64,000 nucleotides of DNA, taken from assembly GCA_012295275.1 (NCBI GenBank), contig CM022673.1, forward strand, positions 12,958,001 to 13,022,000, in the 5' to 3' direction. A program made the translations under genes and the position numbers. Of this stretch, positions 32,501-62,269 are shown in pieces. This stretch comes from Chrysomallon squamiferum (taxonomy: Eukaryota; Animalia; Mollusca). Numbering within the stretch: the first letter of the stretch is position 1; every line of letters starts with the position of its first letter. The notes below the pieces were generated by a model. That model searched no databases. It saw nothing but the letters and a program-made list of their open reading frames with translations, and was not told the DNA's origin.

Positions 32501-35395
32501 AGCAAGAAAAACAGTAATAAAAACAATTAATGAAAATATTTATTAAAATATTTACAGTTTGATGAAAGTATGAATGTGATTGATTAACTGATTGCATATA
32601 TTCATAATGGAAACATATTAAACAGAATCAATAATACAAATAACAGAAATAAACATTATATATTGAAATGATTTTTCAATTTTACTTACATGGATTCAGC
32701 CTTCTTCAACAGAGTGGTAGCATCATGCATTCCCAGAGAAGAGTTACTGTGATTACTATTAGTATTTTTTCTTTTGTCATTTATTTTTGCACCTGTGGAA
32801 AAAAAAAAATTTCCAAATCAAAAACAACATTAAAATATTTTCTGTTACTGAACCTTTTTACTTTCATTTTCTGTTGATTGTAAAAAGGAAACAAAATTAG
32901 TTTTTAATTTGTATTAAATGACAATGTGAGAAAAATAAATAAATAAGAAGAAAATGGCAGCTCTATACCTCCTCCCACAAGACTCAAGGTCTTATATTAT
33001 GGTTATACTTTTTTATCATTAGGAAAGGTTGGTGTAATTAACATATTTATTAAAACTATTTAAAATGAATTCAAATATAACTTTAATTGTTATGAGAATG
33101 ACTATTGTCACATTAAATTATAATTCAGTCCTTATTATACGTAACATATATAGACTGTAGAATTTAAGTTACTGATTAAATAAAAAAATTTTTAATAAAA
33201 TGATTATCCTGATTCTTCTTCTTCTTCTTCATCAATGTTCAGACAGGGATAAATTGTACACATGAAAACCAAAACCAAAAATAATACAAAATGGAAAATG
33301 AAATACAAAAAATCTGATACCTTCTCTTTGCTCCTCCAACATATCTTCTTCTGCCCATTTCTCTGAGTAATGCTTTCCAAGAGGAGGTATTTTAAAGCTT
33401 TCGGAATCTTGTTCGTGTGACTTCAACAAGTCATCGAGAACTTTGAGGTCATCGTTGGTAATTTCTGCACAGTAAGGCTCAACTGAGCTCCAGAACCTGT
33501 TCACTGCATCGTTTTTAGGCAACTTAGGCAGTTCCACAGGAGAGTCAACAAAATCATAGTCGAGTACTTTGTTCTGTGGTAAATTGATATTTTAGAAAAA
33601 TCTTCAAAAAATTGATCAATATGGTAACTTTGTCAATTTTTTTGTTACTAACAACCAAGAGTAACTTAAACCACTGGCATTTCTGTCAGTGTATTTGTTC
33701 TTCTACACATTTTATGATTTTTATATAACAGATAATAAAAATAAATTTTGTAAAACATCAATCTTCTTTAAAACTGTTTTAAACATTAGCCCATATATGT
33801 TGTCAAGAACATCAAAAAATATTCAAGAATTTATTAGGCTTCATGTTAACATGATTACATCACAGATAGGCTGACATTCACCTGCATATTTTTGCTCTTG
33901 GCTCTGACAGGGGGTGGGGGAGTGAGCTGAGATGCTTTCCCACTGGAATCCTTCAGCTTTTTGTTTGGTTTATCGTCACCAGCACCTTTACCTCGCTTGC
34001 CAGGAAGTGGTTCAGAAGGCTACAAACAACATTTTAAAACATTTTTATTGAAATACTGTAGGTTAAAATTCACATATTTAAATGTATGTGTGTATGTCTG
34101 TGTGTGTGTGTGTGTTTGTTGGTGTAAACAAATATCTCTGTACAGGTCTACACCAGTATAGAGTCATACATTCAAATTTGTATTATATTCACACATACAT
34201 AAATTCAAATGCTTAAACATATATATATATATATGTGATTACATTGGATAAACATATATTACTGTATGATTGGATCACTTTGGGTTTTATAAATATTTTA
34301 AAAAAAAAAAAAAGTAGCAATTATAAATTATAGACTAAAACATTTATCAGAACCAGAACAGGCTGCAAAACACAACTAAAAGTTCATGATAAATTTTTGA
34401 AAAACTTCTTGTTATTAAAAAAAGTATACATTGTGTCAAAGACACTAACTGTGGCAACTCCTTTTTTGTCTTTCTTATCCTGCCAGTTGTTAAGTAGTTG
34501 AATTTCCCCCTCCAGCAGTTTCAGACGTTTTCCTGCGTTTGCGAGAAGTGTCTCTATATCAGTTTGTAGCTGGTTCATCTCATCTAGAGAACAAGACTCA
34601 TCTTCCGATCTTGACAGAACTGAAACAGAGTTAATATTTATTACATTATTCTATAAACAAAGTTAGTATTTATTACATTATTCTGTAAACAAAGTTAGTA
34701 TTTATTACACTATTTTGAAAACAGAGTTAATATTTATTACACTATTTTGTAAACAAAGTTAGTATTTATTACACTATTTTGTAAACAACATTAATATTTA
34801 TTACACTATTTTGTAAACAGAGTTAGTATTTCCTACATTATGCTGTAAACAAAGTTAGTATTTATTACATTATTCAGTAAAAAAAAGTTAGTATTAATTC
34901 ACTATTTTGTAAATAGAGATAGTATTTAATATGTTATTTTGTAAACAAAGTTAGTATTAATCACATTCACTTATGACAGAAATTAAAAGTTAGATTACAA
35001 TCAGTCATTATTTCTAAATGTGATTAATATCTTGGGAAAATATTTTTTAAAAGACTAGCATGAGCTAATGTCATTAAGACATTTGTTTCACTAATGATTT
35101 CAGTTATATTTTTAACTTGGGTTTTTTTAAATTACATTAATCTTTTTGCCCCCTCAGTTCTAATAAAATATATTTCAGATGTAATACCTGTATTAATGAT
35201 TTTTTTTATTTTATTTCTTTTAAGTTTAAAACTGAAAATTTTATTACCTATATTTTAAGTTATTAATTCTGTAAGAGTTTTGTTTATCTTACTTGACGTG
35301 TATTTTGGACATTCTTTCACGTGGTCGACAGGCAGAAGATCAGGAAACTGAAGAGGACAGTCCTTGTCCTGTACCACCTTCCCTTTACCTTTCAT
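29386..35395 (-). CDS. TADA3: Transcriptional adapter 3 (SAGA/ATAC subunit), 9 coding exons, about 437 aa after correcting a 1-nt excess in exon 31828-31717
   Basis: Exons 35395-35293, 34619-34450, 34019-33882, 33573-33321, 32792-32690, 32349-32237, 31828-31717, 31217-31024, 29514-29386. Hallmark motifs KDCPLQFPD, WQDKK, NRFWSSVEPYCA, KIPPLGKHYS, PFGPLTQRLVAALIEENI, EDEILAE and PTKKEKEAAWKA. The total is 1315 nt (3n+1). A 5'UTR exon is likely at about 36153-36230. Confidence 0.93.
34620..34965. repeat. 32-bp minisatellite (about 11 copies) at the 3' end of a TADA3 intron
   Basis: Unit approximately AAACAAAGTTAGTATTTATTACACTATTTTGT, abutting the acceptor of exon 34619-34450. Confidence 0.92.
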
Positions 35396-36309: not shown

Positions 36310-39150
36310 ATGTCTGCAAAACTCGAGTGGGAGATTCAACTCTGTGCAATTTACAGTAGAATCGCTGTAATTCTTCTTCAGGTATATAGGTTGACCAATT
36401 TTCAGACTTACGAAATAACTGTAAATTAATATACATTTTAAAAATAAGAACCACAGGCGTATGTACAATTAATGTTGTATTAAAACACCGACACAGGTGC
36501 GATGGGTAACTCACTAACTCAACTGAGACCACTGCTAATGGATAATTATAATAATACTAATAGCAATTAAATAATTAACATTAATATGATTTAATAAAAA
36601 ATATCATTTACGTTGTCCGTCTTAAATCTAATGTTTCAATATCATAATTAATATTTAGTTAAAATCACCATAATGACTATTTCTATGTCGAAACATGTCG
36701 AAGGCGGGGGAGGGGGAAATGGCCTTTTCAATATAATTTATTATGTTAGAGTGCTAAATATTTTTGAAACTTAGAGCGTATTTTGCCTCCAAGTGACTTA
36801 TAACATGATTAAGAACATTATATAGATCTTTTATATTAAAATTGCTAAAAGTATGTGTCCATTGGCATTGGTAATATTTATTGTTGAAAAATAATAAAAT
36901 GAATGAAAGAACTTTGGCACCATCATTCTTTACCTACTATATTTTATACAAAGATAAAAATGTAGATGTTTTAATGAATTATATCAAAGTAAACAGTGTA
37001 CCTGATATATATGTCTCTGAAAATGGAATCAGTTACAGAGAGACAATAATTAAATGATTCCTTTTTCTTTCTTCATTTTTATTATTTATTTTAAATTTAT
37101 TCTAATAAACCTTTCATGTGTAAATAAGAAAGAGTTTTAAACACTTGTAAGTTATACAGAAGCTAAATTAGAAAAATAAAACATATATACATTTTTTTGA
37201 TAATGAATTATTTTCTTATATTGTTACTAATTTTGACTACTTATAGATTGTGTTCAATGCAGTCATTCCAGACCATGATGCCAGTGTGTTTAATCCACCT
37301 CCTGCTCCTAGAAATAAAACATCAGTCGACACTGCAGTGGAATTCCTTCTGGGAGGGTTCCGTCGTTGGGATGGAGTTTACTTCATTCACATTGCCGAGT
37401 ACGGTTACACCTATGAAAACACTGTAGCTTTTTTTCCTCTCTTCCCGTTGTTTGTTGGGAAAGTCACTGAAGCTGTTTCACTGTTTACAAATTCTTTTCT
37501 TTTAATGAGAAACGTTGCACTCGTACTCTCAGTGGTGTTAAACTTTGTTTTGTTTGTTAAAACAGCTAAAATTTTATACCATTTGGGTGTGTTTGTATTA
37601 ATTGATAAAAAACTGGCCTACAAGTCAGCCATGTTGTTTTGTATAAATCCAGCCAGTATATTTTTCACAGCAGCTTATTCAGAAACTATGTTTGCTTTTA
37701 TCTTGTTTTATGGAATGCTGTATGCTTCTAGAGGAAACCACCTTATCGCTTCAGTCTTCTTTGGACTGGCTTCTGCAGCAAGATCAAATGGAATTGTTGC
37801 CATTGGTTTCATTATTTATGGAACTGGAAAATTATTTCTACAAACCTTATATTTCACATATTTATGTAAATTACCACTGATTTCAAAAATTCTTCAAATA
37901 TTTATGACTGCTATTAAATATGTTATGTTAACTGTCTTGTACTTGTCATCAAGTCTTCTTCCATTTGCTCTATACCAGTACTATATATATGATATTTTCT
38001 GTGGAGGACAACCACAGTATTTACCTCTACATATTGTAGAATATGGACACTCAGAGAATTACACCATGGCAACCAGCAAACGCTCTGAATGGTGCAACCA
38101 TTATCTTCCATTATCATACAGCTACATACAGAGCAAACACTGGAATGTTGGATTTTTGCACTACTACAAAATTAAACAGATTCCTAACTTCATACTGGCT
38201 GCTCCAGTCATCTGTATCAGTATGTCTGCTTGTTTACATTACTACAGACAAAACAAGAAATTGTGTCACTGTCTGGGGATTTTATTTGTTGTTGATCACA
38301 AGAAGAATGATAACCACGACGAATGTATTGGTTTTGCTAGCAGCAGAATTTTTCCCTTTGTTGTTCATCTTCTGGCTCTCACAGTCTTTGGATGTTTCTT
38401 TATTCATATACAGGTCTGTATTGCCTTATGTTAAAAAATATAAATCTACACCTCAGTATTTTACTATAAAATACTGTTCAATTACTGGGATGTACATTTA
38501 GGTACATATCAAATATTATTTTAAGATAAATATTTTCCAATTAAATAGTTACCAATAAAAATAAAAAAATTATATGAAATACCTTATTTAAAATATAATA
38601 ATATTTTATGTTTTTTATTGTTGTATTTTTTCCTTCTTTATATTTTTGGAATTACAAAAAGTATTGATTTTAGAGAATAGTCTTATTCATTTTTGACAAC
38701 AGTATTTTCAGTAAAAATATATCTTGGACATCTATCATTAGCTCTGTATCAGACACCATTTTAACCAAACAGACTTCAGTTTTCAGAGCCAGATAGTGAC
38801 AGTTCTTCATTCAAAAGTATTATATCATTATTTTTTAATTTACATATTTTTATTTATTTGAAAACCAGGTTCTGACTCGACTGCTCTGCTCATCTTCTCC
38901 TGTTATTTACTGGTACACAGCCCACTGCATCAGAAAAAGCAAAGATTCCAAAACACAACATCCCAGACATGAAGAAAGAAAATTTGCAGCATCTAATCTC
39001 AATCCACATCATCACAAGACTAATGTTCTATTCGACGACTTGCTTTCCTGGAGGAATCTAGATTTTAATTCCAAGTTAATTTATACATATTTCTTGTCTT
39101 ACTTTGTGATTGGAACTGCAGCTTTTTCAAACTTTTTACCTTGGACATGA
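36310..39150 (+). CDS. PIGV: GPI mannosyltransferase 2 (PIG-V), 3 coding exons, 506 aa
   Basis: Exons 36310-36381, 37247-38413, 38869-39150 (1521 nt). Motifs IPDHDA, RWDGVYFIHIAEYGYTYENTVAFFPLFP, FCINPASIFFTAAYSE, ARSNG, YSYIQSKHWNVGFL...KQIPNFILAAP, HIQVLTR...SSSPVIYW and terminal NFLPWT*. Confidence 0.96.
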
Positions 39151-39770
39151 TTTGTCAGTTATATTGTTATCTTTTTGTAAGAATCAAACAGAAGCAATAT
39201 CAAAATGTCAGCAAAAATGATTCTAACAAAATGTGCAATAGAGGTGAAGATTTTTCTTAGCTGTAGATAATGGTTTTTACTGCTACTTTCATACTGCTTA
39301 AAAGTGCTAGATGATGTGTATGACTTAAACTTCATAAACTGATAAAATTATGTTTTACTAAATTTTATAACATTCTTTAATGTATATTGTTATGTATAAA
39401 CTTTACATATGATTCTACATAATGTAGTGAAATGTTAAAGTTTTCTTTAACTATTTTTCCAGTTAAAATAATAATTCTTTCATTGAAATTATTAATTTTT
39501 CAAGAACTGCTATAATAACAATAACAAAGTTTTTAAAATGTTTAAATCTTTAATATAAATTAAATAGATAATATCCCATAAATCCCATAACTAAAAATAA
39601 ATCTTGAAGCTAAAATTCACCTGAAATATAAATGGAAAAAAAAAAAAAAAAATCAGTTATTGTAGATTTTAAAAACATTTTTAAAAATATGTAGGTAACT
39701 AGTATTTAAAATATTAATAATAACATTGTCATTTTTATTGTTATTATTATTTAAACCTGTATTTTAGCAC

Positions 39771-39915
39771 TTTTCCTGGTATTGTTGTATATATTCAACA
39801 TAGAGAGTAATGAATAAAATCACAATTTTTTCAGTTTTATAAAATAGCTAATTTATTACAGTTGTTTTATTTTATTTTTAAAAACTATGAAAATTGGTCT
39901 TGATTGAAAGCTTAA
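39771..39915 (+). pseudogene. Inverted, decayed copy of the promoter and signal-peptide exon of CCC-His peptide gene B
   Basis: TTTCCTGGTATTGTTGTATATATTCA...TTTTATAAAATAGCTAATTT...AAAACTATGAAAATTGGTCTTGATTGAAAGC aligns with the reverse complement of about 44635-44770. The copy has a short deletion in the exon and has lost the GT donor. Confidence 0.6.
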
Positions 39916-40800
39916 ATTTTTTATGCATTTTCTTTTTTTTATTTTAATTTTGTTTATCTTTTTGTTTCTTTGTGTATTTATTTAGTAACTTTCAAACTAA
40001 TTTATTATTACCATTATTATTTATTATTGTTCTTATTGTTGTTTTTATTTGTGTTTTTGGGGGGGGTTTTTTACTTTTAAAATTAAAATTTCACAAGACA
40101 TTTTGAATAAATTTAGAACACTTTATCTTGTTAAAATTCATTGTATATCATTTATTAATATTTAAATAAACTTTTAAATTATTATTATAGTCTTCTTGTA
40201 TAATGTATTTAACTTTTTCATTTTAAGTGTGGAATGTTTTTTGGATGGTTATACACATTTTCACAATTTGGTATACACAGCAAAATGTCATCTTTATGCA
40301 CATTTCTGAACAACTTTCTTGAACAAAATTACCATCTTTTGCTAATTATAAAGTATAGCAATAAAATAAAAAAATTGTCAGAATATATGAAATCTGATAT
40401 TGCAGAACACTGTGACATGAATAATAAAAATGTAAAAATAAAATAAAATAATAAAATATTATTTAAAAAATAACATATTGTTATAGATTAATCAACCACA
40501 AAGTATTAGTATCCTCAGTCCATCAGGAATTTTTGTGCCTTTCTGTAAGACACGATACCAAAATGATAAAAATGTCAGCCTTTATGCATGCGTCGTTAAG
40601 AATATGTTATTTTATGGTAAATGTAAATAAATAAATAATCATTCAAAGCTACAAAAAAAAAAAAAAATAAATAAATAAATAAATAAAAATAATAAATAAA
40701 ATAAATAAATAAAAAATATTAATTTTGTTAATTCTTCTACAATGTTTTTTATATTTTTTTGTAAAAGTTACTTTTAAAAACATAATGTTATCTCTGTTCA

Positions 40801-41356
40801 TTACTTGGATCTAAGAATGAAAAACGCAGGAGGAGCCAGTCTGAACCCAAATCCAGAAGCTGCGTGATGATGATGATGATGATGATGATGATGGTGGTGG
40901 TGGGGATGACTGGATTTTTTTATCTTTACACTACTGTGATGGTGATGATGACAACAACATTTTGCGTTCACAACAGCAAGTAGACTGGCTGGAAAATAAG
41001 AAAGAAAAATTTTAAAGAAGTAAAATGAACGAGTACAATGAAAAATTGAACATTGTCTACACTGCATGGGTATCATATCTTTGTGAAAAGATAATTTTTT
41101 TTTTTTTTTTTTAATTTTTTTTAATTTGAAATAAATATGTTGTACAACATTAATTATTATTATTATTGTTGATTGTGGTGGTGTTGTTGTTGTTATTGCA
41201 GTTTATTATATGTTTTAATATGTGGGCTATTTATATTTTAATGTATATAACCACAAAATACAAAATATTTATCAGTTTATAACAATAATAATAATTAATT
41301 AATTGAGGGGGATTATTTTGCTTACCTATAATAATTAAAATAAATGTTGTCTTCAT
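40801..41356 (-). CDS. Secreted Cys3/poly-His peptide precursor A (72 aa)
   Basis: Exon 1 41356-41326 (donor G|GTAAGC) joins exon 2 40988-40801 (acceptor TTTTCCAG) to give MKTTFILIIIASLLAVVNA|KCCCHHHHHSSVKIKKSSHPH13AASGFGFRLAPPAFFILRSK*. TATAAA at 41430-41425. The structure is the same in two paralogs. Confidence 0.8.
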
Positions 41357-41938
41357 TTTCACTATCTGTTGATTATTATATTGTATAGATCAACCGAATA
41401 ATGACACAAAATTCAACCTTAGTCTTTATATGTACAGTTTCAGATAAGGAAATAAGACATTAAAAATCCTTTTTAGTGCCATAAGATTTGAAAAGACCCC
41501 CAGTTATTTTGGAAAACCTTTATATCCTTCTTAAAGTTTCAAAGATCTTTCGCCCGATTCACAAAGCCCGATGTATTAAAGTTCTTTGATATCGAAACTA
41601 TTTTAAAATATTTTATCTTTCTCTCTTTCTAGTCGTGATTAATTAATCATTACCGCGTTTAATCCTTTGAAGACTTAAACACCGTTTTAAAGTAAAGTTG
41701 AGACAAATAAAGGGTAAAAGAAATCACGTGACTTCAAAGGAGATAATGAAAAGGTGATTAAATGTCGTCTGCTTTGGTGTGTACGCAACCTCACAGCGGA
41801 GTGCGTTTTGTCGCGTTCGTACATTCACAAACCATTTAAATTATTTTCTTGGATGGATTTTGTTAAATAATACCTCTCCCGAAAATATGCTATGTTGCAA
41901 GTAATTTTTATTACGTTTTACGAATATATGTACATTTA

Positions 41939-41972
<34 letters not shown>

Positions 41973-42330
41973 CCTTTTATTTGCAATTTGTTGAATTTAT
42001 AAACATTTACAACAACATTTTGTTCAGCGGCTTGCGTATTTGCGCCATTCATTGGGAACTAATTTAAATTCGTAAGCTTTAAATTATCTGAAATTAAATT
42101 TGTTTATTTTGTTTTGTTTCTTTTCAAGAGAGTGCCTAAAATCGTTACGTGGCTTCATTCATATTTTAGCATTATAACAAACAGTAAATAAATTTAAACG
42201 TGTGTTGACACCAGTCGCATGATTTTATCATAACATCAGTGTGTATATGTATTTTTTTTTTAGAAAACCTCTAATCCAGAATATGAAACGTGAATCTGTT
42301 GCTGTCATACATTTTTTAAGTTAATTTCAT

Positions 42331-42335
<5 letters not shown>

Positions 42336-42394
<59 letters not shown>
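42336..42394. repeat. (GA)n microsatellite
   Basis: Seen directly. Confidence 0.95.
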
Positions 42395-42396
<2 letters not shown>

Positions 42397-42888
42397 AATC
42401 AAAGACATCAGTCATTATTCATAAATATTTATTTTTTGTTGGTAAATATATAATAAAAATATACATTTATCACTGATAATAATTACGTTTGAAAAAGATT
42501 AATGCTTCAGATGTAAACTAGAGCACTTATAAAATAGGAAATTACAATTAATTTCTCTCTGAAGAATGACGATCACAACACATGCACTCTTTTTGTATCT
42601 TTATTTTCATAATTTAACATATTTTTTTTTTAAATAAACTAAAATAATTCAAAAACATAGAACACTACAAAAAGCAGTGATAAAGTTCGTCAAATAAGAG
42701 TTATTCCCCTTGTTCTTCATTTATACTATATTGAACATCGAACCGATTGCATTAAAATTACGTATAAGATTATTATTAATATCACAGTTTCAAAAAAAAA
42801 GACAGTCAGATTTACTTCATTTCGTCGATAGTCATCATTTATCTGAAATCACAAAAATATTATTATATAGATATATTTAAATAATATA

Positions 42889-43722
42889 TACTCTAACAAA
42901 AAAGAAACGCAAAAGTTGATTTTATTGACATTGGGAATATCTATTTAATGGATCAACAGAAAGCAGCAGAATGTTCCCATTTTACATATGCTTTAGGGTT
43001 CAAATCCGGAGATTTAGAGGACCAGGGCAGGACCTGAATGTTATTGTTGTGTAGGTATGCTGTTGTGAATCTGGCTGTTGGAGCGACATGTGGCTGCAAA
43101 ATTTCATCTCGGCATTTCTGTGCCGTTAAGTCGCCTTGGATGTGAACCAGGTTGGTCCTGCCAGTGTATGAGATTGCTGCCCACACCTTCGCACTACGAC
43201 CGCCAAATCTGTCCGCTTCCTGAATGTAGTTTGCAGCAAAACGTTCACCACGACGTCTGTAAACTCGACATCTTCCATCAGCTCGACGAAGCAGAAATCG
43301 AGCCTCGTCACTAAACCAGACAGTTCTCCATCGTAACTGAGGCCAGACTGTGCACTTGACACCACTGACGTCGTACATGGAACACCCGGGCTACGGCCGA
43401 GAAGGATTCGCCAGCTTGTAAACGGCCGATGGCGTTGTTTCGTTGCGGTTCACTCAGAATAAAAATAACGAACAGAAGTTTTCGAAAACCTTGCATTTTT
43501 ATAACCCTCGTACTGAAGTTTCATGTGCGGCACGTGCCCATGGACTGGTAACGTGGTTTTGGCTAATAAACACGATCATAGCCATTATTTTGTGTTACCT
43601 GCTTTTTGGCGACTGCTATACGTTTGAATCATCAGCTGTCATTATATTCATAGTTTGTATATGTCAGTTTACAATAGTTATCTAAGAATTCAACCATTTT
43701 GCGTTTCTTTTTTGGGAGAATA
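42889..43722 (-). mobile_element. Internally deleted Tc1/mariner element with a transposase remnant
   Basis: TA-flanked TIRs of about 30 bp (CTCTAACAAAAAAGAAACGCAAAA / TTTTGCGTTTCTTTTTTGGGAGAA). There is an HTH fragment AIGRLQAGESFSAVARVFHV and catalytic fragments WRTVWFSDEARF, VWAAIS and LPWSSKSPDLNP. The DNA-binding linker, the QQDNA motif and the catalytic E are missing. Confidence 0.9.
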
Positions 43723-44007
43723 TAATTAAAGGAAAATATAATAATTAAAAAAATATATGCTAAAAAATAAATGTTTTGGAAAAAACAAAACACATCATTT
43801 ATTTATATATTTTGCAATTAAGGAAACATTATGTCGTAAGAGTAAAATTGTACATTAAAAAAGAAAATATACATGAATTTTAATCTTATATTAATATGGA
43901 ATCTAGCCTTCTTCAGTCATCGTCATGTAAAGATGATATCCGAAATAATTTTTTTTAAAAACATTAATTACAATTGTCGTCACTACTTACAAATTTTAAA
44001 ACTACAC

Positions 44008-44143
44008 CAGGGACGAATCGAGCATTGAAAAAAAGGTTAGAAACTTACAAACAGAAATGAGTTTAATTATAAAGAAAATTACGTTCGGCAAAGCATTGTG
44101 GGAAATTCTGTTTAATGTTCTCTCCCCTCCAGATCCGCCCCTG
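44008..44143. mobile_element. Short MITE-like element
   Basis: Imperfect TIRs CAGGGACGAATC...GATCCGCCCCTG of the CAGGGGCGGATC type. No clear target-site duplication. Confidence 0.5.
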
Positions 44144-44148
44144 GGTAC

Positions 44149-44672
44149 TTACCTTTTTCCTATTAGGGGGGCAGGCTGGGCGGGTGCCGCAGGGACAAGT
44201 CTCAGCTGAGCCATTCCTGTTCTGGTAGCTGTGTTGTTGTGTTTGACGATGGTGCTGTGGTGATGATGATGGTGGCAACAACAACATGCATCTCCCATAG
44301 CAACGAGACACGCTGAAACTGAATATTTGGGATAATGATTTTGTTTAATTGTTTAGTTTATTATTGAGCATAGTCGACATGTACGATTACGTACATTCTT
44401 ATTAATTCTAAACAGAATACATACCTATGAACATACACATATTCTTTTTTTTTTATCTTCCTCTTTGTACATAATAAAAATTAAAAATTAAAATCTATAT
44501 GGAGCCTAAATTTACCACTGAAATAAATAAATAATTAGACAACAACAATAATAAACAAACAAACAAACAAACATACAAAAATACTAAAACGCAAATAAAC
44601 AAAATAAATTAAAACAGAAAATAAATACATGAAATTTAGCTTACCAATCAAGAAAACAACAGCAATTTTCAT
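44149..44672 (-). CDS. Secreted Cys4/poly-His peptide precursor B (63 aa, GKR amidation signal)
   Basis: Exon 1 44672-44645 (donor G|GTAAGC) joins exon 2 44312-44149 (acceptor TTTCAG) to give MKIAVVFLIACLVAMGDA|CCCCHHHHHHSTIVKHNNTATRTGMAQLRLVPAAPAQPAPLIGKR*. TATAAA at 44727-44722. Confidence 0.8.
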
Positions 44673-45221
44673 AGTTTTAAAAATTAAATTTTTAACAAAA
44701 CAACTGTTGTAAATTAGCTATTTTATAAAAATGGAAAAAATCGTGAATATATACAACTATACCAGGAAAGGGAAAGTAATAAAATCTTATCCTGTTTTAA
44801 CAAAAACCTTATTTACTTTCATTGATTTCATCTCTTTATTCATTTCATGAACGGCTTTGTGGTCGCTTATGTTATTTCAAACAAAACATTCTTTTATACT
44901 TTTTTTTTTTTTTTTTTCAAAAATACTTGAAAGAAAATAATTTCACTTACAAGTTTTAAAAAAAAAAATAAAAATAAATAAAATGAATAAACAAAAACAT
45001 TCTGTTCCTTATTTTTATATATATATATTTTATTATAATAATTTATATCAAAGTATTTCTTTGCGACCCAGTCTTGGATTCTGTCTCATACATTTTGTTC
45101 TTTCTCTTCTTCTTCTTAATACAAAATAAGACGTTTTATATATATCTTTGACAGATTTATTTTTGCTTCTTCCTTCTCTTGATCCTCATGCTTATTAATT
45201 CAGATACCCACTCATTCTTTA

Positions 45222-45417
45222 CCTGTCTGTCTGTTTATCTATCTGTCTGAATCTATCTCTCCCTATGCCGGTCTGTCCGTCTGTCTCTCTGTCTATATTT
45301 CTATGTATTTATCTGTCTATAAATATCTCTATCTGTCTGTCTCTCTCTCTTTCTCTTTATTTATATATCCAGCAATCTATGTATGTATATGTATATATTT
45401 ATATATCTGTCTATCTG

Positions 45418-45450
<33 letters not shown>

Positions 45451-45600
45451 AATCTATCAGTCTATCTATTTATCTCTCTGTCTATCTGTCTGTCTCTCTG
45501 AATATCTGTCTGTATGTCTGTATGTATGTCCGTCTGTCTGTTTATCTATATGTCTGTATTTCAGTCTTCTATTTGTCTGTCTGTCTGACATTCTCTCTAT
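45222..45600. repeat. Degenerate (CTAT/CTGT)n simple-repeat tract
   Basis: Seen directly; it accounts for the spurious YLSI/SIYL ORFs here. Confidence 0.9.
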
Positions 45601-47635
45601 CCCTTAATTATTATTAACATTAATAAAATAGAATTTAATTTTCAAGCTGTCCTGTCGCATGCCGACTAACTGGCTATGTTAAAGGAGTTTGGTAAGATAT
45701 TAAACATAGCACCAAAATGTGACCTATGAGTTTTATTTGCTTTTTCAGCCTTATCATGAACAGCTAAAAGTAAGTGAGACTAATTTTCCGCTAAATTAAA
45801 CATTTTAATTGTTTTAATTTTTTTTTTTTTTTTTTTTTTTTTAAAATTTTAATGTCAAATCACTAATTAAATCACATATAATTTTAACAGTTCACTGTCG
45901 TACAAAATGTGTGACAAATATCAGGCAACAGAAGTCACAGGAAAACAGATCGACCAAGAATGAAAGGCAAAATACTCGTTTTTATCTTACTTAGCAAAAC
46001 ATATTGTATACTCTCACCAAATCTTGGTCGTCTTAGTAAAATTAATGAGTCAAAGACACCTAGTCCATGGTGTTTGTTTCAGGATCGTTTGGAATGTCTT
46101 TTACGTCTAACTATCTGAGTTATGATTATAATTATGTGTCTGGTGTTGTATATTGTCCTAAACTGCGGTTATAAAATTATTTAGTCGTTTACGATCAATA
46201 ATAATTCAATAAATATTCGCTAATTTGTTTTATTTTATTTTATTATTATTACCTTATTTATTTATTTATTTATTTAGTTAGTTAGTTATTTGGTTTGTTT
46301 CTTTGTTAGAAACATTTTCCATGGCTAAAATAAAAATCAGAAATAGATTATGTTCCAAACTGACCTCCATCACAAACGTGTAGTAGCGCAAGGGAGGTAA
46401 TACAAAATTATTATTATTAATATTTATGTTTATTTATTTTTTTTTTTTCAGCACTGCATTTTTCTTTATTAGTATTTAATCTTCACTTCGTTTTTTTTTC
46501 CTGTTTTTTTTTATCCAGACTTTTTTCTTTCCCATCACTTGTTTACGAATCTCTCTCCGCTCTTTCCTTCTTTTTTTTTAAATTTTAATTTTATTACTTC
46601 CCAAGTTATTGTAAGTAGATAAATGAAATAAAACCAGAAAGCATCATTTTATGCTAAATCATATTTTATTATGAATTCGAGAATAAAAATAAATCCAAAC
46701 CCTATAATTATAACATAAATTTCGGATATCTGTAAAAAAATATAATATTCTTGTCCGAGGAAGAACTTTAGAAACCTTTGTGGTTTGACTTTGAGCTGAA
46801 CCTGAAAAAAAAAAAAAAAAAAAATAATAATAATAATAATAATAACAACAAAACCAACAACAACAACAATAATAATAAGAAGAAGAAACAAGATTTTTTT
46901 TTTTAATAATATATAAATAAATAAATAAAAAGTTTGGCAACAATATTTGATATTTTTAATTAAAACTAAAGATGAATTCAAGCTTCTGTAGCAGATAAAT
47001 AAAATTATTTACATTTAGTTCATGAAAACTGTGTTAAATAATTTTTGATGCAGTTAGGGAATTATTGTAATATGTATTTGCATTTCCCTGTCTTATTATA
47101 CGCGTATCTGGGAATCAGTGAATATTTGTAAAACAATTTACTTATATTATTATTATTATTTACCTTGTGAATTACAAAATCAGTGTATTAGTTTAATAAA
47201 TATTAAACACAAAGTAAATTAATTTCGTTTATGTATGTCTAAGTGTGCCTAAAACAATGTTTTTGTGTATGTTTATTTGTGAAGGTGTGCGTGCGTCCGT
47301 CCGTGTGAGAATCTGTTTAAATATATCGGTTTGTTATACATCTTTATTTTGTACATTTAATAACAAGTGCACATTAACAGATTTTTAGTTGTTAACTGTA
47401 TTATGTGAGTAGGAACAAAAGTATATTTATAAATATATTATTATTTATTTATTTTCTTCTTCTAATTCTTCTTCTTCTTCTTCTTCTTCTTCTTGTTATT
47501 ATTATTACTTTGTTTCTTTATATATTTTTGAGAGTGCATGCCTTTGTGTTTGTGTGTGTGTGTGTGTGGATGTGTGTGTGTGAAATTTTAACCTCTTACA
47601 TTTAGTTCACCATCAATATCTAACCACTGACTGTT

Positions 47636-47868
47636 CTAACCAGCGGCAACCAGAACTGGTTTGAGGACTGGAACAAGTTTGATTTTGTGTGTGTGTGATG
47701 ACTTGAAACTACAGCAGCAGTGTCCATCAGCCATAGAAACTATAGCTGCAACTGAAACAAATAAGAAAACAGAATATTAATATGTATTACGATGAATAAT
47801 TATGAATTATATTTATAATCAGGGATTGTTTGGAGAACAAAAAATTTCTGGAAGCAGTTAAATAAAGT

Positions 47869-47935
<67 letters not shown>

Positions 47936-48109
47936 TCAGAGTCGAATTCAGCAATATTTATCTTGTTAAACCACAACATTTAATAATAAATAAAATATAT
48001 ATAAAAAATAATAATAATAAATAAGTAAATAAATAAAAATAATGTATAAACGATAAGAAATAAATGACATACTTAACATTACGCAGAAAGCAACAAATTT
48101 CCATTCCAT
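47636..48109 (-). CDS. Secreted Cys3 cationic peptide precursor C (50 aa, C-terminal Gly amide donor)
   Basis: Exon 1 48109-48073 (donor A|GTATGT) joins exon 2 47751-47636 (acceptor TTGTTTCAG) to give MEWKFVAFCVMLIAAIVSMADG|HCCCSFKSSHTHKIKLVPVLKPVLVAAG*. TATAAA at 48191-48186. A candidate 3'UTR exon begins at the strong acceptor at 46801. Confidence 0.78.
47869..47932. repeat. (GA)n microsatellite in the intron of peptide gene C
   Basis: Seen directly. Confidence 0.95.
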
Positions 48110-48821
48110 TTTCGTTCTATATTTCTTGCAGTGTTTTATGAGTCATTTAAAATATCTTTACCTCACAAATTCATAAAATAATAGTTTTATACTCACTAAA
48201 GAAGGAAGCGTGTATGAACATCCAAATACCAGATTTGGAAGAAACCAATGTACGAATTAAAATATCAAATGATTTTAGAATGAATCATTTTTTTTATTTG
48301 AAGTTGTTTTGTTTTTGAGAAAAAAAAGTATTTTAACATCGACTTGAAAGTTTTCAGATTAGCAACGATTATCAAAAAGCCTATACCAAGCATTTTAACT
48401 CTTTGATCCTTTAAAAGAATTAATTCTTTTAGATCCCAGTTTATTTTTGAATGAACCATAATTTTCGTTTTTCTAGCCCGCATCAAACGCACGTGTTTCG
48501 TTTTCGTTAATAACGTAAAATGAAACCGGAATAGATAACTGTTGAAACAAACGCTAGTCCTTGATCATGTTCAGTTTGAAAGACATAAATGTGTCTGTTT
48601 GCAGACTGGTCAATTTAACAGCGGAGACGACGTCAACTGTTTCAGCAACATGACAGTGACCCCACGCCGAGAAATAAGTCGTGTGGTCACGCTCACGCTG
48701 ATAAAGAAAATAGACGTGCTGTTTTGTTTTATAACAAAGACAGTGATATTTACTTTGAATGAAGTTGCTAATATTTTTGGATCCTTTAATAAAAATTTTG
48801 GATCCTTTAATAAAAATGTAA

Positions 48822-48825
<4 letters not shown>

Positions 48826-48869
<44 letters not shown>

Positions 48870-48895
48870 AATATATATATATATATATATATATA
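48826..48895. repeat. (CT)n + (AT)n compound microsatellite
   Basis: Seen directly. Confidence 0.9.
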
Positions 48896-49059
48896 CACTC
48901 AAACTCTCTATCTAATATATCTATATTTTTGTATCTGTCTCTCACAGAGACATGAATATGCAAATAACAAAGAAAAAAGAAAAGACATACAAAAAATATT
49001 TATTTTTCATTAGCCGGATATCTTTTTTTTTTTTTTTTATTATTTTATTTTTATTTGAT

Positions 49060-49085
49060 TATCTATCTATCTGTCTGTCTGTATG

Positions 49086-49118
<33 letters not shown>

Positions 49119-49192
49119 ATATCTATCTATCCATCTATCTATCTGTCTGTCAATCTATCTATCTATCTATATTTATTTATTTATTTATTTAT
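49060..49192. repeat. (CTAT)n / (TTTA)n simple repeats
   Basis: Seen directly. Confidence 0.85.
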
Positions 49193-49814
49193 TTACAAAA
49201 GGCGAAAGACTTATTCTGGGCAGAGAACAAATGCAATATAATATCTGGATTTGAGCCATCATTATTTAAAATGAACAAAACTGATAAAATAAACAGCAAA
49301 CCCAACATTAGCATTAATAACAACATTTTATCTTATAATCTGACAACATATCTGCAAGAATTACTCCCCTTTATTCATAATTTCGATACCATGTTCTTTA
49401 TTTTCAAGATAGGATAATTGTGAGTTATTTCCCTTTACGATGTGTTATCTGTTTATAAAACTGGGATAGGCCTACGTGTGTGTTCGTTCATGTGTGTACT
49501 AGAAAGTACCAATGAAAGGTTAAATAAATAGATAAAAAAATCAAAATCAGGAGCAGCCTTATACAATCTATAATTGATTAACTAACTGAACCATTAGATC
49601 GATATCGTTAAGCAAAAAATTAGGTTTTTAAAAATGAACAGTAATTTCGGTTCTGTAATAAACCCACTGAAGCGAGCAGTACCGGATTTGGTTTTAGTTA
49701 CGTGAGAATAGTCGTATAATTAGTGGGACAGGATGAATCGGACATAAACCATAATTTAACAAGAAGTATATACGACATGTTTCTTCAACCCCTAAATTAT
49801 CGTTATTTCAGCAT

Positions 49815-50270
49815 CATTGCGCGCAATTAGAGTCAGAGTGTAATTCACTGACGTCATGAGATAATGACACTTTGTGCTCAACCGCAGTTGAAAAGAACAA
49901 TGCACGTGATGTCACATACCGCCAAGAGTTGTCACATAATTGGGGTATTTTTCTTAGTCCATAATTTCCGACGTCAACGAGGCGCACCCGCCGACTTGAC
50001 AAAGGTTTTATAACAAGAGCGTTGTGTTCGCTGTGTGTTTGATACGGTCGCGGAGATAGACGGGGCGTGTGGATTCAGTGTTGGTTTTCCTGCCCTGTTA
50101 TTATGTCGCTCTTTTATTACTGTATTTTATCATGACTAAACCACCCGCACGCCGCCGAGTCCAATAGGTACAACACCCAGGTACAACACCCAGGTACAAC
50201 ACCCAGGTACAACACCCAGGGAAGACAACACCCAGGTACAACACCCAGGGAAGAAAAGTCGCATCGGGGA
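49815..50270. promoter_or_regulatory. CpG-rich promoter- or enhancer-like island
   Basis: Dense CpGs, full CRE TGACGTCA at 49849-49856, E-box CACGTG near 49903, GC-box-like GGGGCGTG near 50062, and CCAAT at 50161. Confidence 0.45.
50166..50253. repeat. 13-bp tandem repeat (AGGTACAACACCC), about 6 copies
   Basis: Four perfect copies followed by units with AGGGAAG variants. Confidence 0.93.
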
Positions 50271-50991
50271 ATAGGATTTTTATTTACGATAAAAAATACT
50301 GAACTGTTGCAATGTATTTGTCTTATAACGTTATGTGTTTGTTGATTTCTTTATTATTATTTTGAAAAATATATATATATATATGTATATAATTTTGTTA
50401 CTTTACCACTAACATGGAGTAAAAAATATGGTATGTACACTTTTATCGAATTGGAAGAACTGAAAACAAAAAATACGAGACAGAGAATACAAATGACATT
50501 TATTTAAAAATAACGTTCCTTGTTATGAATTAAAATGTATTCTTGTACTCTAATTCAAAAGAAAGAAAATTTAACGTTCACACAAGATACAGTACTGAAT
50601 TACCCATGTGACAAATGTATGAAAAATGTCACTGCAAACTGTGACAAATATTCACATATCATATTTACATATTAATCGCCAAGGAACGTGCAGTTAGTGT
50701 TTGTACACGTGCTATTATGATGCAACCCGATATAAGCGGGTCGCCTTTAATGAGTGTTTATTGACCCGAACGTCGTAAATCTTAGTCTAATTAACCGGCC
50801 TGTCCCTGGCTATTTTACCTGTCTGTATTTATCCACAGAGTTGACTTTGTCAGATTTCACGGCCAGGTATTTCCTGTTCTCTGGAATGCTGACAACACCA
50901 CCTGTTATCTTCACATTACATGACACGAAGTCTTGATGATAATCGAATTGTTGATAAGTTAGTCAGATGATAAAGAAAACGTACTTAAATA

Positions 50992-51034
<43 letters not shown>

Positions 51035-52627
51035 CAAAAAAAAAAAAAAAAAAATGCAAGAAAATCACCTCGTTATTATTATTATTATTATTATTAATAC
51101 TAAAACAACAGCTTCTAAAATGGAATTGCTGTTTATTTATATCTGCATTCAGTTTGTTAAAATTTAAGTACTAAAATAAAAACGTAAAATAATAATTTAA
51201 TTATAAATACTACTACTACTACCACTACCAGTACTACTAATAACAATAATAAATTAATTATAAATAATACTACTACTACTAATAATACTAATATAATAAT
51301 AATATTAAATAGCACCAATATTATCAAAACAGGAGTTGTTTCCCTTTGAACGACGAGCACAAGCAAGGCATTAAAATGCATTTCAACAAATAATGGATAC
51401 AGAAACATTTAATCAACGTGATTTTATATGAAATCCATTTAAGTACGTCTGTCTTATACACGAACTGTAACTATGAAAGGGAATTCTCAATAACAGAACT
51501 GTTATTTGTATCACTATATTGTCAGCGAAAATCCACAGAGATGAATCGAGAATTCCCCATGGTTATGAAGACCATTTACTTTTATTTCGTTAATTTTCAG
51601 TGTCTGCAAATAAATGTCTGAAACGGTTATTATTAAATAAACGGTAACACGATACATATTGAAAATAAATATTTTATTAGTATTCTCTAATTTTAATTAT
51701 TTTGGTCGAAAATGAACTATCACTTCCGTTATTATAATTATTATATTATACTGCTTATTTTTACATTGTTATTATTTGGATTATTATTATCGTTGTTGTT
51801 GTTACTACTGCTACTACTACTACTGTTGTTATTTTGTTGTTGTTGTTGTTATTAACGTTAAAAGGCTTTATTAAACGCGTTCTTTCGATTTTTTAATTAC
51901 CATTCTTTGAGGCATTAGTCGTAACTTCAAACTTTTGAATAAGTGCAATGCTTTCAAAGCGATAATGTATCGATTTTATTAATTCTGAATCCTCATACTC
52001 TACCAAAATATCACTATGTCCCACATGAGATTTATATATTCAAGTTATTCCAACGTAAGGTATATCTTGTATTGAAAATCATCGACACAGAAACTATAGT
52101 TCAAGAATTTATGAAAATTATCGTAACTGGAATAAATTATTTCTACTTTTATTAAAATATTTTCAAACATTATTTTATTCCATGAATTAGAAATTATTCT
52201 TGAAAAAAAAAAAAAAAAAAACGGTTCGGACTAAGTGACCCGATTTCAACTCAAGGGGTACAGAAGTGGCTGGTGATACGACTGGAAAAGTGTGAGGTAC
52301 CGACACACCCTTCACACAGTCAACACGATCGTATTCTAAAAGCGACACATTAAAATTACTGATCACGTTCTGCTGAATTCCTAGCCTGACCCGCACTGAT
52401 CATGTGAAATAAATAAAACTGCACTTGTTTGCTCGCCATCACCTCTCTCATGTTTTCACTCCTTTATCTGGCTTATTGGCAGTTTCTCTGTGTGATCGTT
52501 CTTGTTTCTCTCGTTATTTCACTCTTCCTCCCCGATTTCTGTATCCACCTCCAGTTATCTATGTTTTATTGTCTGCTTCGTACTGTTTATCATCAGAGCT
52601 GATTTTCATTCTCACATTAAACGCAGT

Positions 52628-52662
52628 AATAATAATAATAATAATAATAATAATATAATAAT

Positions 52663-52705
<43 letters not shown>
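52628..52705. repeat. (AAT)n + (CAT)n microsatellite
   Basis: Seen directly. Confidence 0.9.
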
Positions 52706-52706
<1 letters not shown>

Positions 52707-54316
52707 ACGTTATCATACGTCTTCTGCAGAAAACAAAGGCACCAACATCAACACGAACAACACTATCAAATGCAACAGGGCGACCCTGTTCACAATCTAT
52801 TCGAGATCATGTTTGGAAGACCTCGCCTAGGAAAATATTTACTCTTTTCCAGCGAGAGGGAAACGGTTAAGTGATTGACTATTACAAGAAATACTTTCCA
52901 AACGACTCCGAGATTGAATTAACTCGAGGTACAGATTTTCAAGTTCAATTTGTTTGATCATGCCTGGTCACACGTGTCGAATAAAAGATAGCGCGGATGA
53001 TTTTTTTCGTCAACGCAGTTAAAGACGAAAATAAATTTGCCGAAGAGATAACGAAATCGGATTTAATTCAGTTGGTAAAATGTAGACGTTTTGACGCCAT
53101 GTTGACCAGATAGGCAAATTTCGTTAATTTGTTTTGTTCGGATTGGGAATTATTTATTTATTTATTTACTTTATTAGAAATTTCTGTTATTATAATAAAA
53201 TTTGTTTTAAAACAATTATTTCTGGAATATCTCTTCTTCTTCTTTTTTTTTTTTTTCTTCAATAATTAAGTATTCCGAAGTTTTTAATTCATTTATTTTA
53301 TTATTATTCGTCTTTATCAGCTATGTGGGTGGGTGGGTGTTTTGCAAGGGTGTATTTCTGTTATATGCTTATGGTGTAATGTTGTTATTGTTATTGTTAT
53401 AGTTAATATTTATTCTACTAATTCCGTATTATTAATATCAAAATGAACACACCTATGAAATTCTGGCCGTTATGTGACCTCTTGTAGTACCAAACAGCCG
53501 TCACATACCTACTAATACAGTGGTGCGCAGATCAAGAGATAAACACGGGTATTTGTACATACCGATAACAGGTCAATTCGAGTGCAGATGACGGCCGATA
53601 GTGCGGGAGATAATGCGAGATAAATTTACAATTAAAGGTTACGATCACACACAGTCGCATGTACAATACTACCGCAATCTGCTACGGAAATACAAGAGAC
53701 TATTTCCAATACTGTAACAGTAGAACAGGTTGCAAATATTCATCACAGTCTGCCCACGGCTGTCGTTTTTCAGTCTCATGGTAACGGCCGGATATAAACG
53801 TGAGGTAAATGGTATTTCAAGTTAATTTCTGTTAAAAATCCGGATTCAGTGAAATAAATAGGAGAATCCAGTATTGCAACAAACAAACAAACAAATAAAA
53901 ACTGTTTCCAGATTCGTAACACCAGGACAGCTTGCAATGCTTCGTCACGATTATTAATAGTCCTAAGGCAGTAAAATTTCAGCATGAAATGATATTTACA
54001 TATAAGACGTAAATTATTATTCCTAAAAATTAACTTCAGTAGAATAAACAGGATAATCCAGCATTGAAATGAATGAATGAATGAATAAATAAATAAATAA
54101 ATAAATAACTGAAGTGTTGTCACAAACAAATAAATGAACGAACAAATAGCACTAAAAAATATAAATAATAACAATAAAAAAAAAAAAATAAATAAAAGAC
54201 AGCTTAAAATATGTCATATGTCGACATTGGCAAAATATTCCATATTGGCTGTTGGATGTCAAAAATTATTTTTATTTCCGACTAGTACTGGGAAGAAACC
54301 ACTTATTATTATTATT

Positions 54317-54350
<34 letters not shown>

Positions 54351-55615
54351 CCAGACAAAACGGTATAAAATTTATAGTCTTCCTAATTCCGTATATTTTA
54401 CCAAAATGTTCAACCACAGCTTTGCAAATTTTATTACAAGTGACTGAATGACATAATAGGCAAAACCCTTGAAAATTATTATTTTTTTTATTTTTTTTTT
54501 TAAAGCAGTAATAACTGAAAATAACTAATATTTCTCCATTTTTATTTGTTATTACGGCTATTTTCCGACTCTTGTGAAACATTGCTTCCCAAGTACGTTT
54601 TTCTGATGCCAGAGTCGGATTATGAAGTGTACTCCAACATTTCGTTCTGAATTACTGTGAATGAGTTTGAATCTATTTCAGCTGTCACTGTGGCGGCACC
54701 GTGTCCAGTTCCACAAGGTCTGGGAGTAACTGTAAAAAGAACGAAGTAGCCAAAGCGACTATCAAAAAAGTCAAATTGTCACTTGCATGAAATACGCAAG
54801 AAATTGCACTGCGTGGAGTGGGGTCGTTGTAATTTAGTTTGTTGTGGTGTAAATTGCCATGTAAGCATTTCAAACAGACACACGTCTGCTTGTTTATCAG
54901 CGGTTATTTATCCTGGCTGCATACATCTTAAATTTAAGTACATTAATTGTCTGTGATGAACCAGTTCTTCGTGAAAAGTATCGGAAATGAATATCGAGCG
55001 CCAAAGATACGCCAATAATTCTGGATTGGGAAACAACCGCAGAAATCCCAGAAGTCCATCGATCGTAAAACATTTTACAAATTCTGTTAATAATAATAAT
55101 ATCTTTAACTCAGAGGGCTATTAACTATTTTCTTGCATGCCTTAATCAAATTTAATGCAGTTTGCTTAATCGTGTATTAAAGTCAAATGAATTCGCAGCA
55201 GTCAACGCTGTATATATTCCTAACAGCTGCATTTCGCCATACTTGAATACGATGTAAGCGTTGCAATTGAATTAATATTTTATTATTTCATCACGCTGAT
55301 AACGTACTCACTCGGATGTCGTAAGTCAGAAAAAAAAAAAAACAAGCGCTGGAAACGAAGAAGATTTGGAGGGGAAGAAAAAGTCCATTATACGCCAATT
55401 ATACGGTAATTGAGATTACGACCTGGACAGATCTCTCAGGAGAGATTCCGCTAATCGAGTAATGTCTATTCTCGGTCTATCCTACCCATTACTACATCAT
55501 TCTTTACAGCTAATTTCAATCCCCGTAACGTGGACACACCAATTATCTTCTTATTGGATTTTCTTCCTTGCAAGAAAAGTGGAGGGAAAGAACACACACA
55601 CACACACACATACAG

Positions 55616-55648
<33 letters not shown>

Positions 55649-57532: not shown

Positions 57533-57568
<36 letters not shown>

Positions 57569-62235: not shown

Positions 62236-62269
<34 letters not shown>

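Follow-up and report, generated by a model that had tools for sequence, protein, structure and literature searches.

Myticalins and modiocalins, the linear cationic antimicrobial peptides (AMPs) of mussel gills, form a molluscan multigene family with a signal peptide, pseudogenes, a hypervariable cationic core of 23-42 amino acids (aa), Gly-Lys-Arg amidation and some Pro-bearing members (PMC5577615; papers are cited by PMC number for what their accessible parts state). Clavanins, histatins and shepherins are likewise short, cationic, secreted and His-rich, with pH-dependent charge and metal binding (PMC10004757). Mussel preCol His domains and the Nereis jaw protein NVJP contain Zn/Cu-binding His runs and undergo a pH-triggered change at secretion (PMC9999432), and Trichinella Ts-PCHTP is a secretory protein with poly-Cys and a natural His tag that binds Fe, Ni and Zn (PMC2954182). 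Here we describe three genes, with likenesses to each of these systems, in a 64,000-nucleotide (nt) stretch of DNA from Chrysomallon squamiferum, the scaly-foot snail (GenBank assembly GCA_012295275.1, contig CM022673.1, positions 12,958,001 to 13,022,000, forward strand), hereafter the window, whose first letter is position 1. They are very probably real genes, judging from their sequence, and probably constitute a tandem, lineage-restricted and hitherto undescribed peptide family.

Each gene is modelled as a tiny first coding exon followed by a longer second exon (slashes within donors mark the exon boundary):

41326..41356, minus strand: gene 1 coding exon 1, 31 nt, ATG at 41356, leader residues 1-10, donor TAG/GTAAGC
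40801..40988, minus strand: gene 1 exon 2, with leader end VNA, K-CCC head, two His runs, FRLAP and tail end ILRSK
44645..44672, minus strand: gene 2 coding exon 1, 28 nt, ATG at 44672, donor TTG/GTAAGC
44149..44312, minus strand: gene 2 exon 2, with leader end GDA, CCCC head, His6, Thr/Asn linker, LRLVP, Pro/Ala tail and LI-GKR end
48073..48109, minus strand: gene 3 coding exon 1, 37 nt, ATG at 48109, donor TAA/GTATGT, the best among several possible first exons
47636..47751, minus strand: gene 3 exon 2, with leader end ADG, H-CCC head, SFKSSHTHK segment, IKLVP, aliphatic tail and AAG end

These two-exon models give precursors of 72, 63 and 50 aa for genes 1, 2 and 3. An initial annotation, made from the letters of the window, had placed three minus-strand genes about 3.4 kb apart, and the coordinates, the strand and the ATG-to-ATG spacing (3316 nt between genes 1 and 2, 3437 nt between genes 2 and 3) all bear this out. 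The layout it described, a TATAAA box, a first exon of 28-37 nt and a phase-1 intron inside the leader, is present in 3/3 genes. TATAAA lies 74, 55 and 82 nt upstream of the ATG in genes 1, 2 and 3 (216 of the window's 2485 ATGs, or 8.7%, have one at a comparable distance), and the introns are all GT-AG, in phase 1, with lengths of 337, 332 and 321 nt (junctions 41326/40988, 44645/44312 and 48073/47751). The intron interrupts a hydrophobic, signal-like leader in each gene (best 9-residue hydropathy 3.2-3.5), and a small-x-small triplet (VNA, GDA or ADG) stands before the head with its three or four adjacent Cys. Secretion of the three peptides is predicted from this leader, using hydropathy only, and cleavage sites were placed by the (-3,-1) rule only. 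In all three genes exon 2 forms a GC island, at 43%, 53% and 45% versus 21-25% in the introns (21% in that of gene 1). The K-CCC, C-CCC and H-CCC heads, the His/Ser/Lys segment and the FRLAP, LRLVP and IKLVP motif are also in the sequence as first described, and aligning the three second exons leaves CCC, one Lys and L-x-P invariant.

The window has 28% GC and is rich in simple repeats, and CCC-His5 is by itself a frequent off-frame reading of trinucleotide repeats, found, mostly in this form, at no fewer than 116 metagenome loci. The CCC-His5 motif is cheap; the complete gene architecture is not. Scanning both strands of the window (128 kb) for spliced precursors with a signal and CCC yielded four CCC loci, and the three that bear His and no acidic residue are genes 1-3, using a filter that was written after seeing the genes and so favours them. 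The fourth model, at +15772, was rejected as an antisense reading of an Asn repeat inside a neighbouring gene. Local shuffles of the window (n=36) gave no His-bearing, acid-free model and five single CCC loci.

The precursors also resemble one another: 0/2000 shuffles reach the similarity score in any of the three pairs, and at most 1/2000 does so when leader and mature part are shuffled separately. Because this likeness exceeds that of shuffled sequences, we regard genes 1-3 as paralogues, although their promoters have no detectable likeness (p 0.93, 0.92 and 0.17). Paralogy weakens one argument of the initial annotation, namely that three independent in-phase splice junctions make chance unlikely. 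The genes are not independent, and open exon-1/acceptor combinations number seven for gene 3 and two for gene 2, so the in-phase junctions are weak evidence.

A decayed copy, which the initial annotation did not contain, adjoins the cluster:

~39770..39985, plus strand: pseudogene fragment, an inverted copy of the gene 2 promoter, exon 1 and intron start, with ATG at 39887

In a self-comparison of the window it matches gene 2 at 74% over 195 nt (blastn, E 2e-24), and in the promoter 85/93 aligned bases agree. An 8-nt deletion interrupts its exon 1, the GT donor is gone and the reading stops after six codons; no exon 2 was found up to 40400. This broken, inverted fourth copy therefore points to a family that duplicates and decays and, together with paralogy beyond shuffles, upholds the claim that these small genes for secreted-type peptides form a tandem family.

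A second DNA set, run X1, has one contig spanning 44060-44430, which differs from the window by 11 substitutions plus one indel of 9 nt in the intron; the gene 2 exon has no indel or stop, and splice sites, Cys, His and frame are unchanged. Four changes fall in the exon, two synonymous and two replacement (Lys-Arg and Pro-Ala). The comparison fits an intact gene 2. RNA contig sets X2-X4 have 0 contigs on gene 2 exon 2, which is evidence neither for nor against expression.

Cut after VNA, GDA and ADG, the mature peptides would be 53, 45 and 28 aa long, with 4% Gly and no Asp, Glu, Tyr or Trp. The absence of Asp and Glu, as first claimed, thus stands for these cleavage sites; in genes 2 and 3 an alternative site two residues earlier also fits, and it would leave one Asp on the mature peptide. 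Cys number 3, 4 and 3 in genes 1, 2 and 3, all adjacent at the N-terminus. His makes up 11-36% of the mature peptides (19 of 53 aa in gene 1, three residues in gene 3), and Cys and His together 21-42%. Arg is 4%, 7% and 0%, the isoelectric point (pI) is 10.2, 9.7 and 9.4, and the computed charge at pH 5.5 and pH 7.8 is +21/+6, +10/+4 and +6/+3, respectively; the computed composition figures for gene 2 include one extra Ala (cut one residue early). Trypsin is predicted to release pieces of 7-25 aa. A single-sequence structure model of gene 2 has a predicted TM-score (pTM) of 0.16 and no secondary structure (low confidence), and the peptides are predicted, also with low confidence, to be unstructured.

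The C-terminal ends need care. In the unspliced reading, GKR closes gene 2 and a terminal Gly closes gene 3; both ends are amidation-like and new relative to the initial annotation, and gene 1 has no such end. Another new observation is that the stop codon overlaps a possible splice donor in every gene (AA/GTAATG, AG/GTAAGT and G/GTTAGA in genes 1, 2 and 3), so all three tails are provisional and may be longer. The Pro/aliphatic tail of the initial annotation accordingly holds for the unspliced reading, and its end is provisional. The gene 1 donor, at 40805, is weak and in phase 2, at a position matching that in gene 2, where a full consensus donor lies at 44153 (AG/GTAAGT, an 8-mer that occurs three times in the window). 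The features involved are as follows:

42600..42842, minus strand: putative candidate exon 3 of gene 2, with acceptor 42842 (one of 9 candidate acceptors) and AATAAA at 42605
46659..46801, minus strand: putative candidate third exon for gene 3, following a very strong poly-T acceptor (46801)
44007..44144, strand not given: element with 13-nt terminal inverted repeats (11/13 matching, read by eye), which we take to be like a miniature inverted-repeat transposable element (MITE)
42950..43570, minus strand: degenerate transposase-like remnant between genes 1 and 2, with an open reading frame (ORF) at 42953-43390, presumably Tc1/mariner; Pfam yields no family there

The MITE-like element begins 9 nt past the possible donor under the gene 2 stop, and its place directly behind that donor suits an intron there. 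Splicing of gene 2 onto acceptor 42842 would preserve the GKR-stop end. In gene 3, the candidate third exon could be 3' untranslated region via donor 47600 or add a 47-codon basic/aromatic extension via donor 47641.

Set beside the described systems, the snail peptides by analogy would work like His-rich, Zn- and pH-dependent AMPs and appear to evolve like myticalins, yet belong to neither. Myticalins are given as being without Cys in the accessible part of their description (PMC12294457), whereas the snail peptides have 3, 4 and 3. Myticalins also have >10% Arg and pI >11, compared with 0-7% Arg and pI 9.4-10.2 here, and their introns lie in the 5' untranslated region and in the extension, leaving the signal peptide in one exon, whereas here an intron falls inside the leader (PMC5577615). 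In myticalins Lys-Arg is followed by an anionic extension of 35-75 aa (PMC5577615); GKR occurs here only in gene 2, and no such extension is encoded by any of the 9 third exons proposed for it outside the transposon remnant, all of them candidates only.

Clavanin A is amidated, like the amidation-like ends of genes 2 and 3, but the sequences listed for clavanin A, histatin 5 and the shepherins are without Cys, and these peptides come from unrelated phyla and have no sequence match to ours (PMC10004757). Clavanins are amphipathic helices (PMC10004757), whereas the snail peptides have helical moments of 0.37-0.51 and are predicted to be unstructured. The preCols and NVJP are proteins of 30-240 kDa or rich in Gly, Tyr or Dopa (NVJP-1a has 36% Gly and 7% Tyr), unlike peptides of 3-6 kDa with a Cys head, 4% Gly and no Tyr (PMC9999432). 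Ts-PCHTP is larger and has a pair of poly-Cys domains plus a His tail at the C-terminus (PMC2954182), while here the Cys are N-terminal and His follows directly. Metallothioneins and defensin-, conotoxin- and hepcidin-type folds have Cys along the chain, in contrast to Cys that are all adjacent at the N-terminus and give no Pfam match. The Helicobacter nickel-storage peptide Hpn, of ~60 aa, resembles the snail peptides in having His runs with adjacent Cys pairs, but it is bacterial and cytoplasmic, with acidic residues and no signal peptide.

Searches for relatives used exon-2 peptides only as queries, which are short, of low complexity and hence insensitive. Pfam matched 0/3 genes (E up to 0.1), and the ESM Atlas gave no usable match for gene 1. 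PDB matches of gene 2 were rejected as His-tags only, judging from the match positions. Among 5.8 billion protein clusters there was no candidate for gene 2, and the family alignment drew 11 candidates, none at E <=10. A profile search of 1.84 billion representatives returned one match, P0121, a bacterial Ig-like repeat protein that was not accepted because its score is summed from six weak stretches. The family, unrecognised in the initial annotation, is thus also without a match in the libraries covered by these exon-2 queries. Given such short, low-complexity queries, the result amounts to absence from annotation, not from related genomes. Absence from 15 billion predicted proteins would be explained by tiny exons escaping ORF-based annotation. 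No published description of such a family was found in the literature searched, whose coverage leaves out most subscription journals.

Metagenome contigs gave 435 pattern matches, 0 of them confirmed. A motif scan of metagenomes gave 118 matches at 116 loci, and the nine that passed a loose filter were all rejected by eye because they read through repeats and lack a hydrophobic leader end and tail. Separately, twelve metagenome loci (L021, L027, L038, L047, L055, L080, L083, L085, L096, L103, L105 and L114) contain Cys2-3-His4-6-Asp/Glu-rich repeats; these acidic frames seem to be genuine metal-binding linkers of bacteria and have no relation to the snail family.

Within the scaly-foot snail, two 'novel' genes on chr7, CsqKR_Scaf471_2.5 and Scaf884_0.0, may be candidate relatives; both have a repeat of 23 residues that starts with CCCCSVK at residue 15, and one of them is given as 4.3-fold gill-enriched (PMC7142155). 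CsqKR_Scaf59_23.2, whose label is 'histidine-rich PFHRP-III-like', was rejected as a KTVHEITVHE repeat protein. CsqKR_Scaf180_0.42, annotated 'CD19 antigen-like' and 17-fold mantle-enriched, has long His/Leu/Asn repeats (PMC7142155) and is another, distinct His-rich protein that may be a shell-matrix candidate or else an off-frame model.

We favour the reading, at a probability of about 0.4, that genes 1-3 encode secreted, metal-binding, disulfide-linked cationic host-defence peptides of mucosal or shell-edge surfaces. The leader would bring the precursor into the secretory pathway, with the cut falling just before the Cys head, and trimming and amidation would take place at GKR in gene 2 and at the terminal Gly in gene 3. 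Neighbouring Cys form only strained disulfides, and with three Cys in a chain a full intrachain pairing is impossible. Because the three or four adjacent Cys are the only ones of the mature chain and cannot all pair within it, interchain links or free thiols are expected, so the heads may link chains into oligomers or remain as metal-binding thiols. His runs, which near neutral pH are ligands for Zn, Cu and Ni, would be charged in acidic granules, and the peptide would be stored as a soluble polycation; on release to seawater the His would deprotonate and bind Zn, Cu or Ni, and the peptide would condense in mucus. Lys and Arg residues and the aliphatic-Pro tail could then engage microbial envelopes, and surface microbes would be killed or restrained via membrane damage and metal withholding or delivery.

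Several observations speak for host defence. The precursor layout, with mature peptides of 28-53 aa, pI 9.4-10.2 and no acidic residue, is one. Another is that the gene layout is constant and the mature region hypervariable, with copies in tandem and one pseudogene; this is the pattern reported for myticalins and called typical of defence peptides (PMC5577615). Amidation signals such as the GKR and Gly ends are common in AMPs (PMC5577615), and clavanins and histatins are examples of cationic His-rich AMPs with pH dependence and Zn binding (PMC10004757). The predicted lack of structure also counts in favour, as do the absence of Tyr and the 4% Gly, which set the mature peptides apart from Gly/His/Tyr jaw proteins and the Dopa-bearing His domains of byssus (PMC9999432).

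Other observations weigh against it. Gene 1 has no amidation signal, and the best 11-residue helical moments (0.51, 0.51 and 0.37) indicate only modest amphipathicity. Many cationic peptides are weakened by high salt, and lineage-restricted shell and cuticle proteins likewise duplicate and diverge fast. Within 1 kb upstream of the three genes there is no strict NF-kB or Relish-type site, and loose sites are no more frequent than background. No anionic pro-piece, which myticalins have, occurs among the candidate third exons. Selection on gene 2 gave p = 0.23, four changes being too few to show it.

A possible though doubtful alternative is that the peptides are structural cross-linkers of a hard part or secretion, such as periostracum, operculum, radula, scale, egg capsule or adhesive mucus. 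They would be soluble in acid granules and condense on release, with disulfide, His-metal and quinone cross-links hardening the matrix. The large computed fall in charge between pH 5.5 and pH 7.8 has a counterpart in mussel preCols, with their pH-triggered assembly and His-metal cross-links, and mussel foot proteins include basic, disordered members of 4-6 kDa (PMC9999432); peltospirid shells and scales also contain many proteins without known domains (PMC11871041). However, the peptides have no Tyr/Dopa, no Gly-rich or chitin-binding repeat and no acidic domain, and amidation-like ends are more typical of bioactive peptides. The family motifs were not found in the readable supplements of PMC11871041, a weak point since these give accessions, not sequences. 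Taken together, the amidation-like ends, small size, lack of Tyr/Gly-rich repeats and birth-and-death pattern modestly favour a bioactive (defence) peptide over a structural protein.

It is unlikely that the peptides are mainly secreted metal or sulfide sinks. As such they would detoxify by taking up excess Zn, Cu, Ni or Fe on the Cys head and His runs, or by carrying reduced sulfur, and would then leave with the mucus or become fixed in the shell surface. Their Cys and His content suits this, and the nematode poly-Cys, His-tailed protein binds Fe, Ni and Zn (PMC2954182). The scaly-foot snail puts sulfur in its scales, and a metal tolerance gene is up at iron-rich sites (PMC7142155). A neighbouring gene of the window also groups with vent peltospirids:

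36310-39147, plus strand: PIG-V (GPI mannosyltransferase 2; PF04188), three coding stretches by tblastn

Its best matches are in Gigantopelta aegis (65%), assembly P0002 (64%) and Haliotis (48%), and in a tree of 17 rows (16 hand-picked from 120 listed matches) the window joins G. aegis and P0002 at 100/100, outside their pair, which places its host among the neomphaline gastropods; G. aegis is a peltospirid (Neomphalina). Against a sink, the vent or chemosynthetic habitat, although likely, is deduced from this one neighbouring gene, gene 3 has only 3 His, and hydrophobic tails and amidation-like ends would be superfluous. No metal-response element (TGCRCNC) lies within 1 kb upstream of any gene.

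The defence, matrix and sink readings share chemistry and are not mutually exclusive. One speculative and quite improbable combination is a self-polymerising thiol/His system in which Cys heads would knot chains together and His arms act as pH-switched metal traps. The resulting film would control microbes and sequester metal and sulfur, possibly feeding organic sulfur or nucleation sites of the metal-sulfide coats on peltospirid shells and scales.

We consider it rather unlikely that the three loci are not genes at all, being either chance readings of trinucleotide repeats or dead, unexpressed copies. Off-frame CCC-His5, the dead copy adjoining the cluster and the lack of a homologue in the databases searched would fit this. 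However, 0/36 shuffles yield such a model, and mutual similarity lies beyond 2000 shuffles in 3/3 pairs, at most 1/2000 reaching it. The common intron phase, similar intron length, TATAAA at 3/3 genes and GC-rich exon 2 also speak for genes, as does the run X1 gene 2 exon without indel or stop, its 9-nt indel being intronic. Signalling peptides (neuropeptide, pheromone or developmental cue) are highly improbable: the signal-like leader, amidation-like ends and common L-x-P motif would suit them, but peptides repeated between dibasic sites and a conserved C-terminal motif are both absent, Pfam gives no match, the lengths are 28-53 aa, and a His/Cys cluster of this kind is not known from neuropeptides.

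The peptide cluster lies at the edge of a conserved gene block, before a gene-poor stretch. Window positions 1800-35400 hold compact conserved genes: two leucine-rich-repeat genes (plus strand), one gene with a C-terminal Myb domain (minus strand), which we take to be TERB1-like, and TADA3 (PF10198, minus strand), which has a 32-nt minisatellite of ~11 copies in an intron (34623-34967). PIG-V, TADA3 and their neighbours are not among the genes in the scaly-foot supplements. From 48300 to 64000 (~16 kb), no gene was found by eye or by the spliced-peptide scan; this stretch has many short GC islands, maybe regulatory or repeat remnants, and a GC-rich 13/29-nt tandem repeat with ACAACACCCAGGT units (50166-50254). 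An open frame at 52654-52830 (plus strand) contains a His14 run from an ATC repeat, without leader or Cys head, and is read as a microsatellite. The window's 28% GC is lower than the genome means of 34.5% in Chrysomallon and 37.5% in Gigantopelta (PMC7736800).

Only a handful of gastropod defence peptides have been described (PMC12466427), and the word 'antimicrobial' is absent from the main text of the Gigantopelta hologenome paper. Tiny two-exon genes such as these slip past ORF-based annotation. The peptides are short enough for synthesis, making metal binding, oligomerisation and killing directly testable, and a natural peptide with Cys3-4 and a His tag is of interest as a pH-switched metal-binding material. 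If the peptides do tie to shell and scale sulfur, they would be relevant to the handling of sulfide and metals by vent snails.

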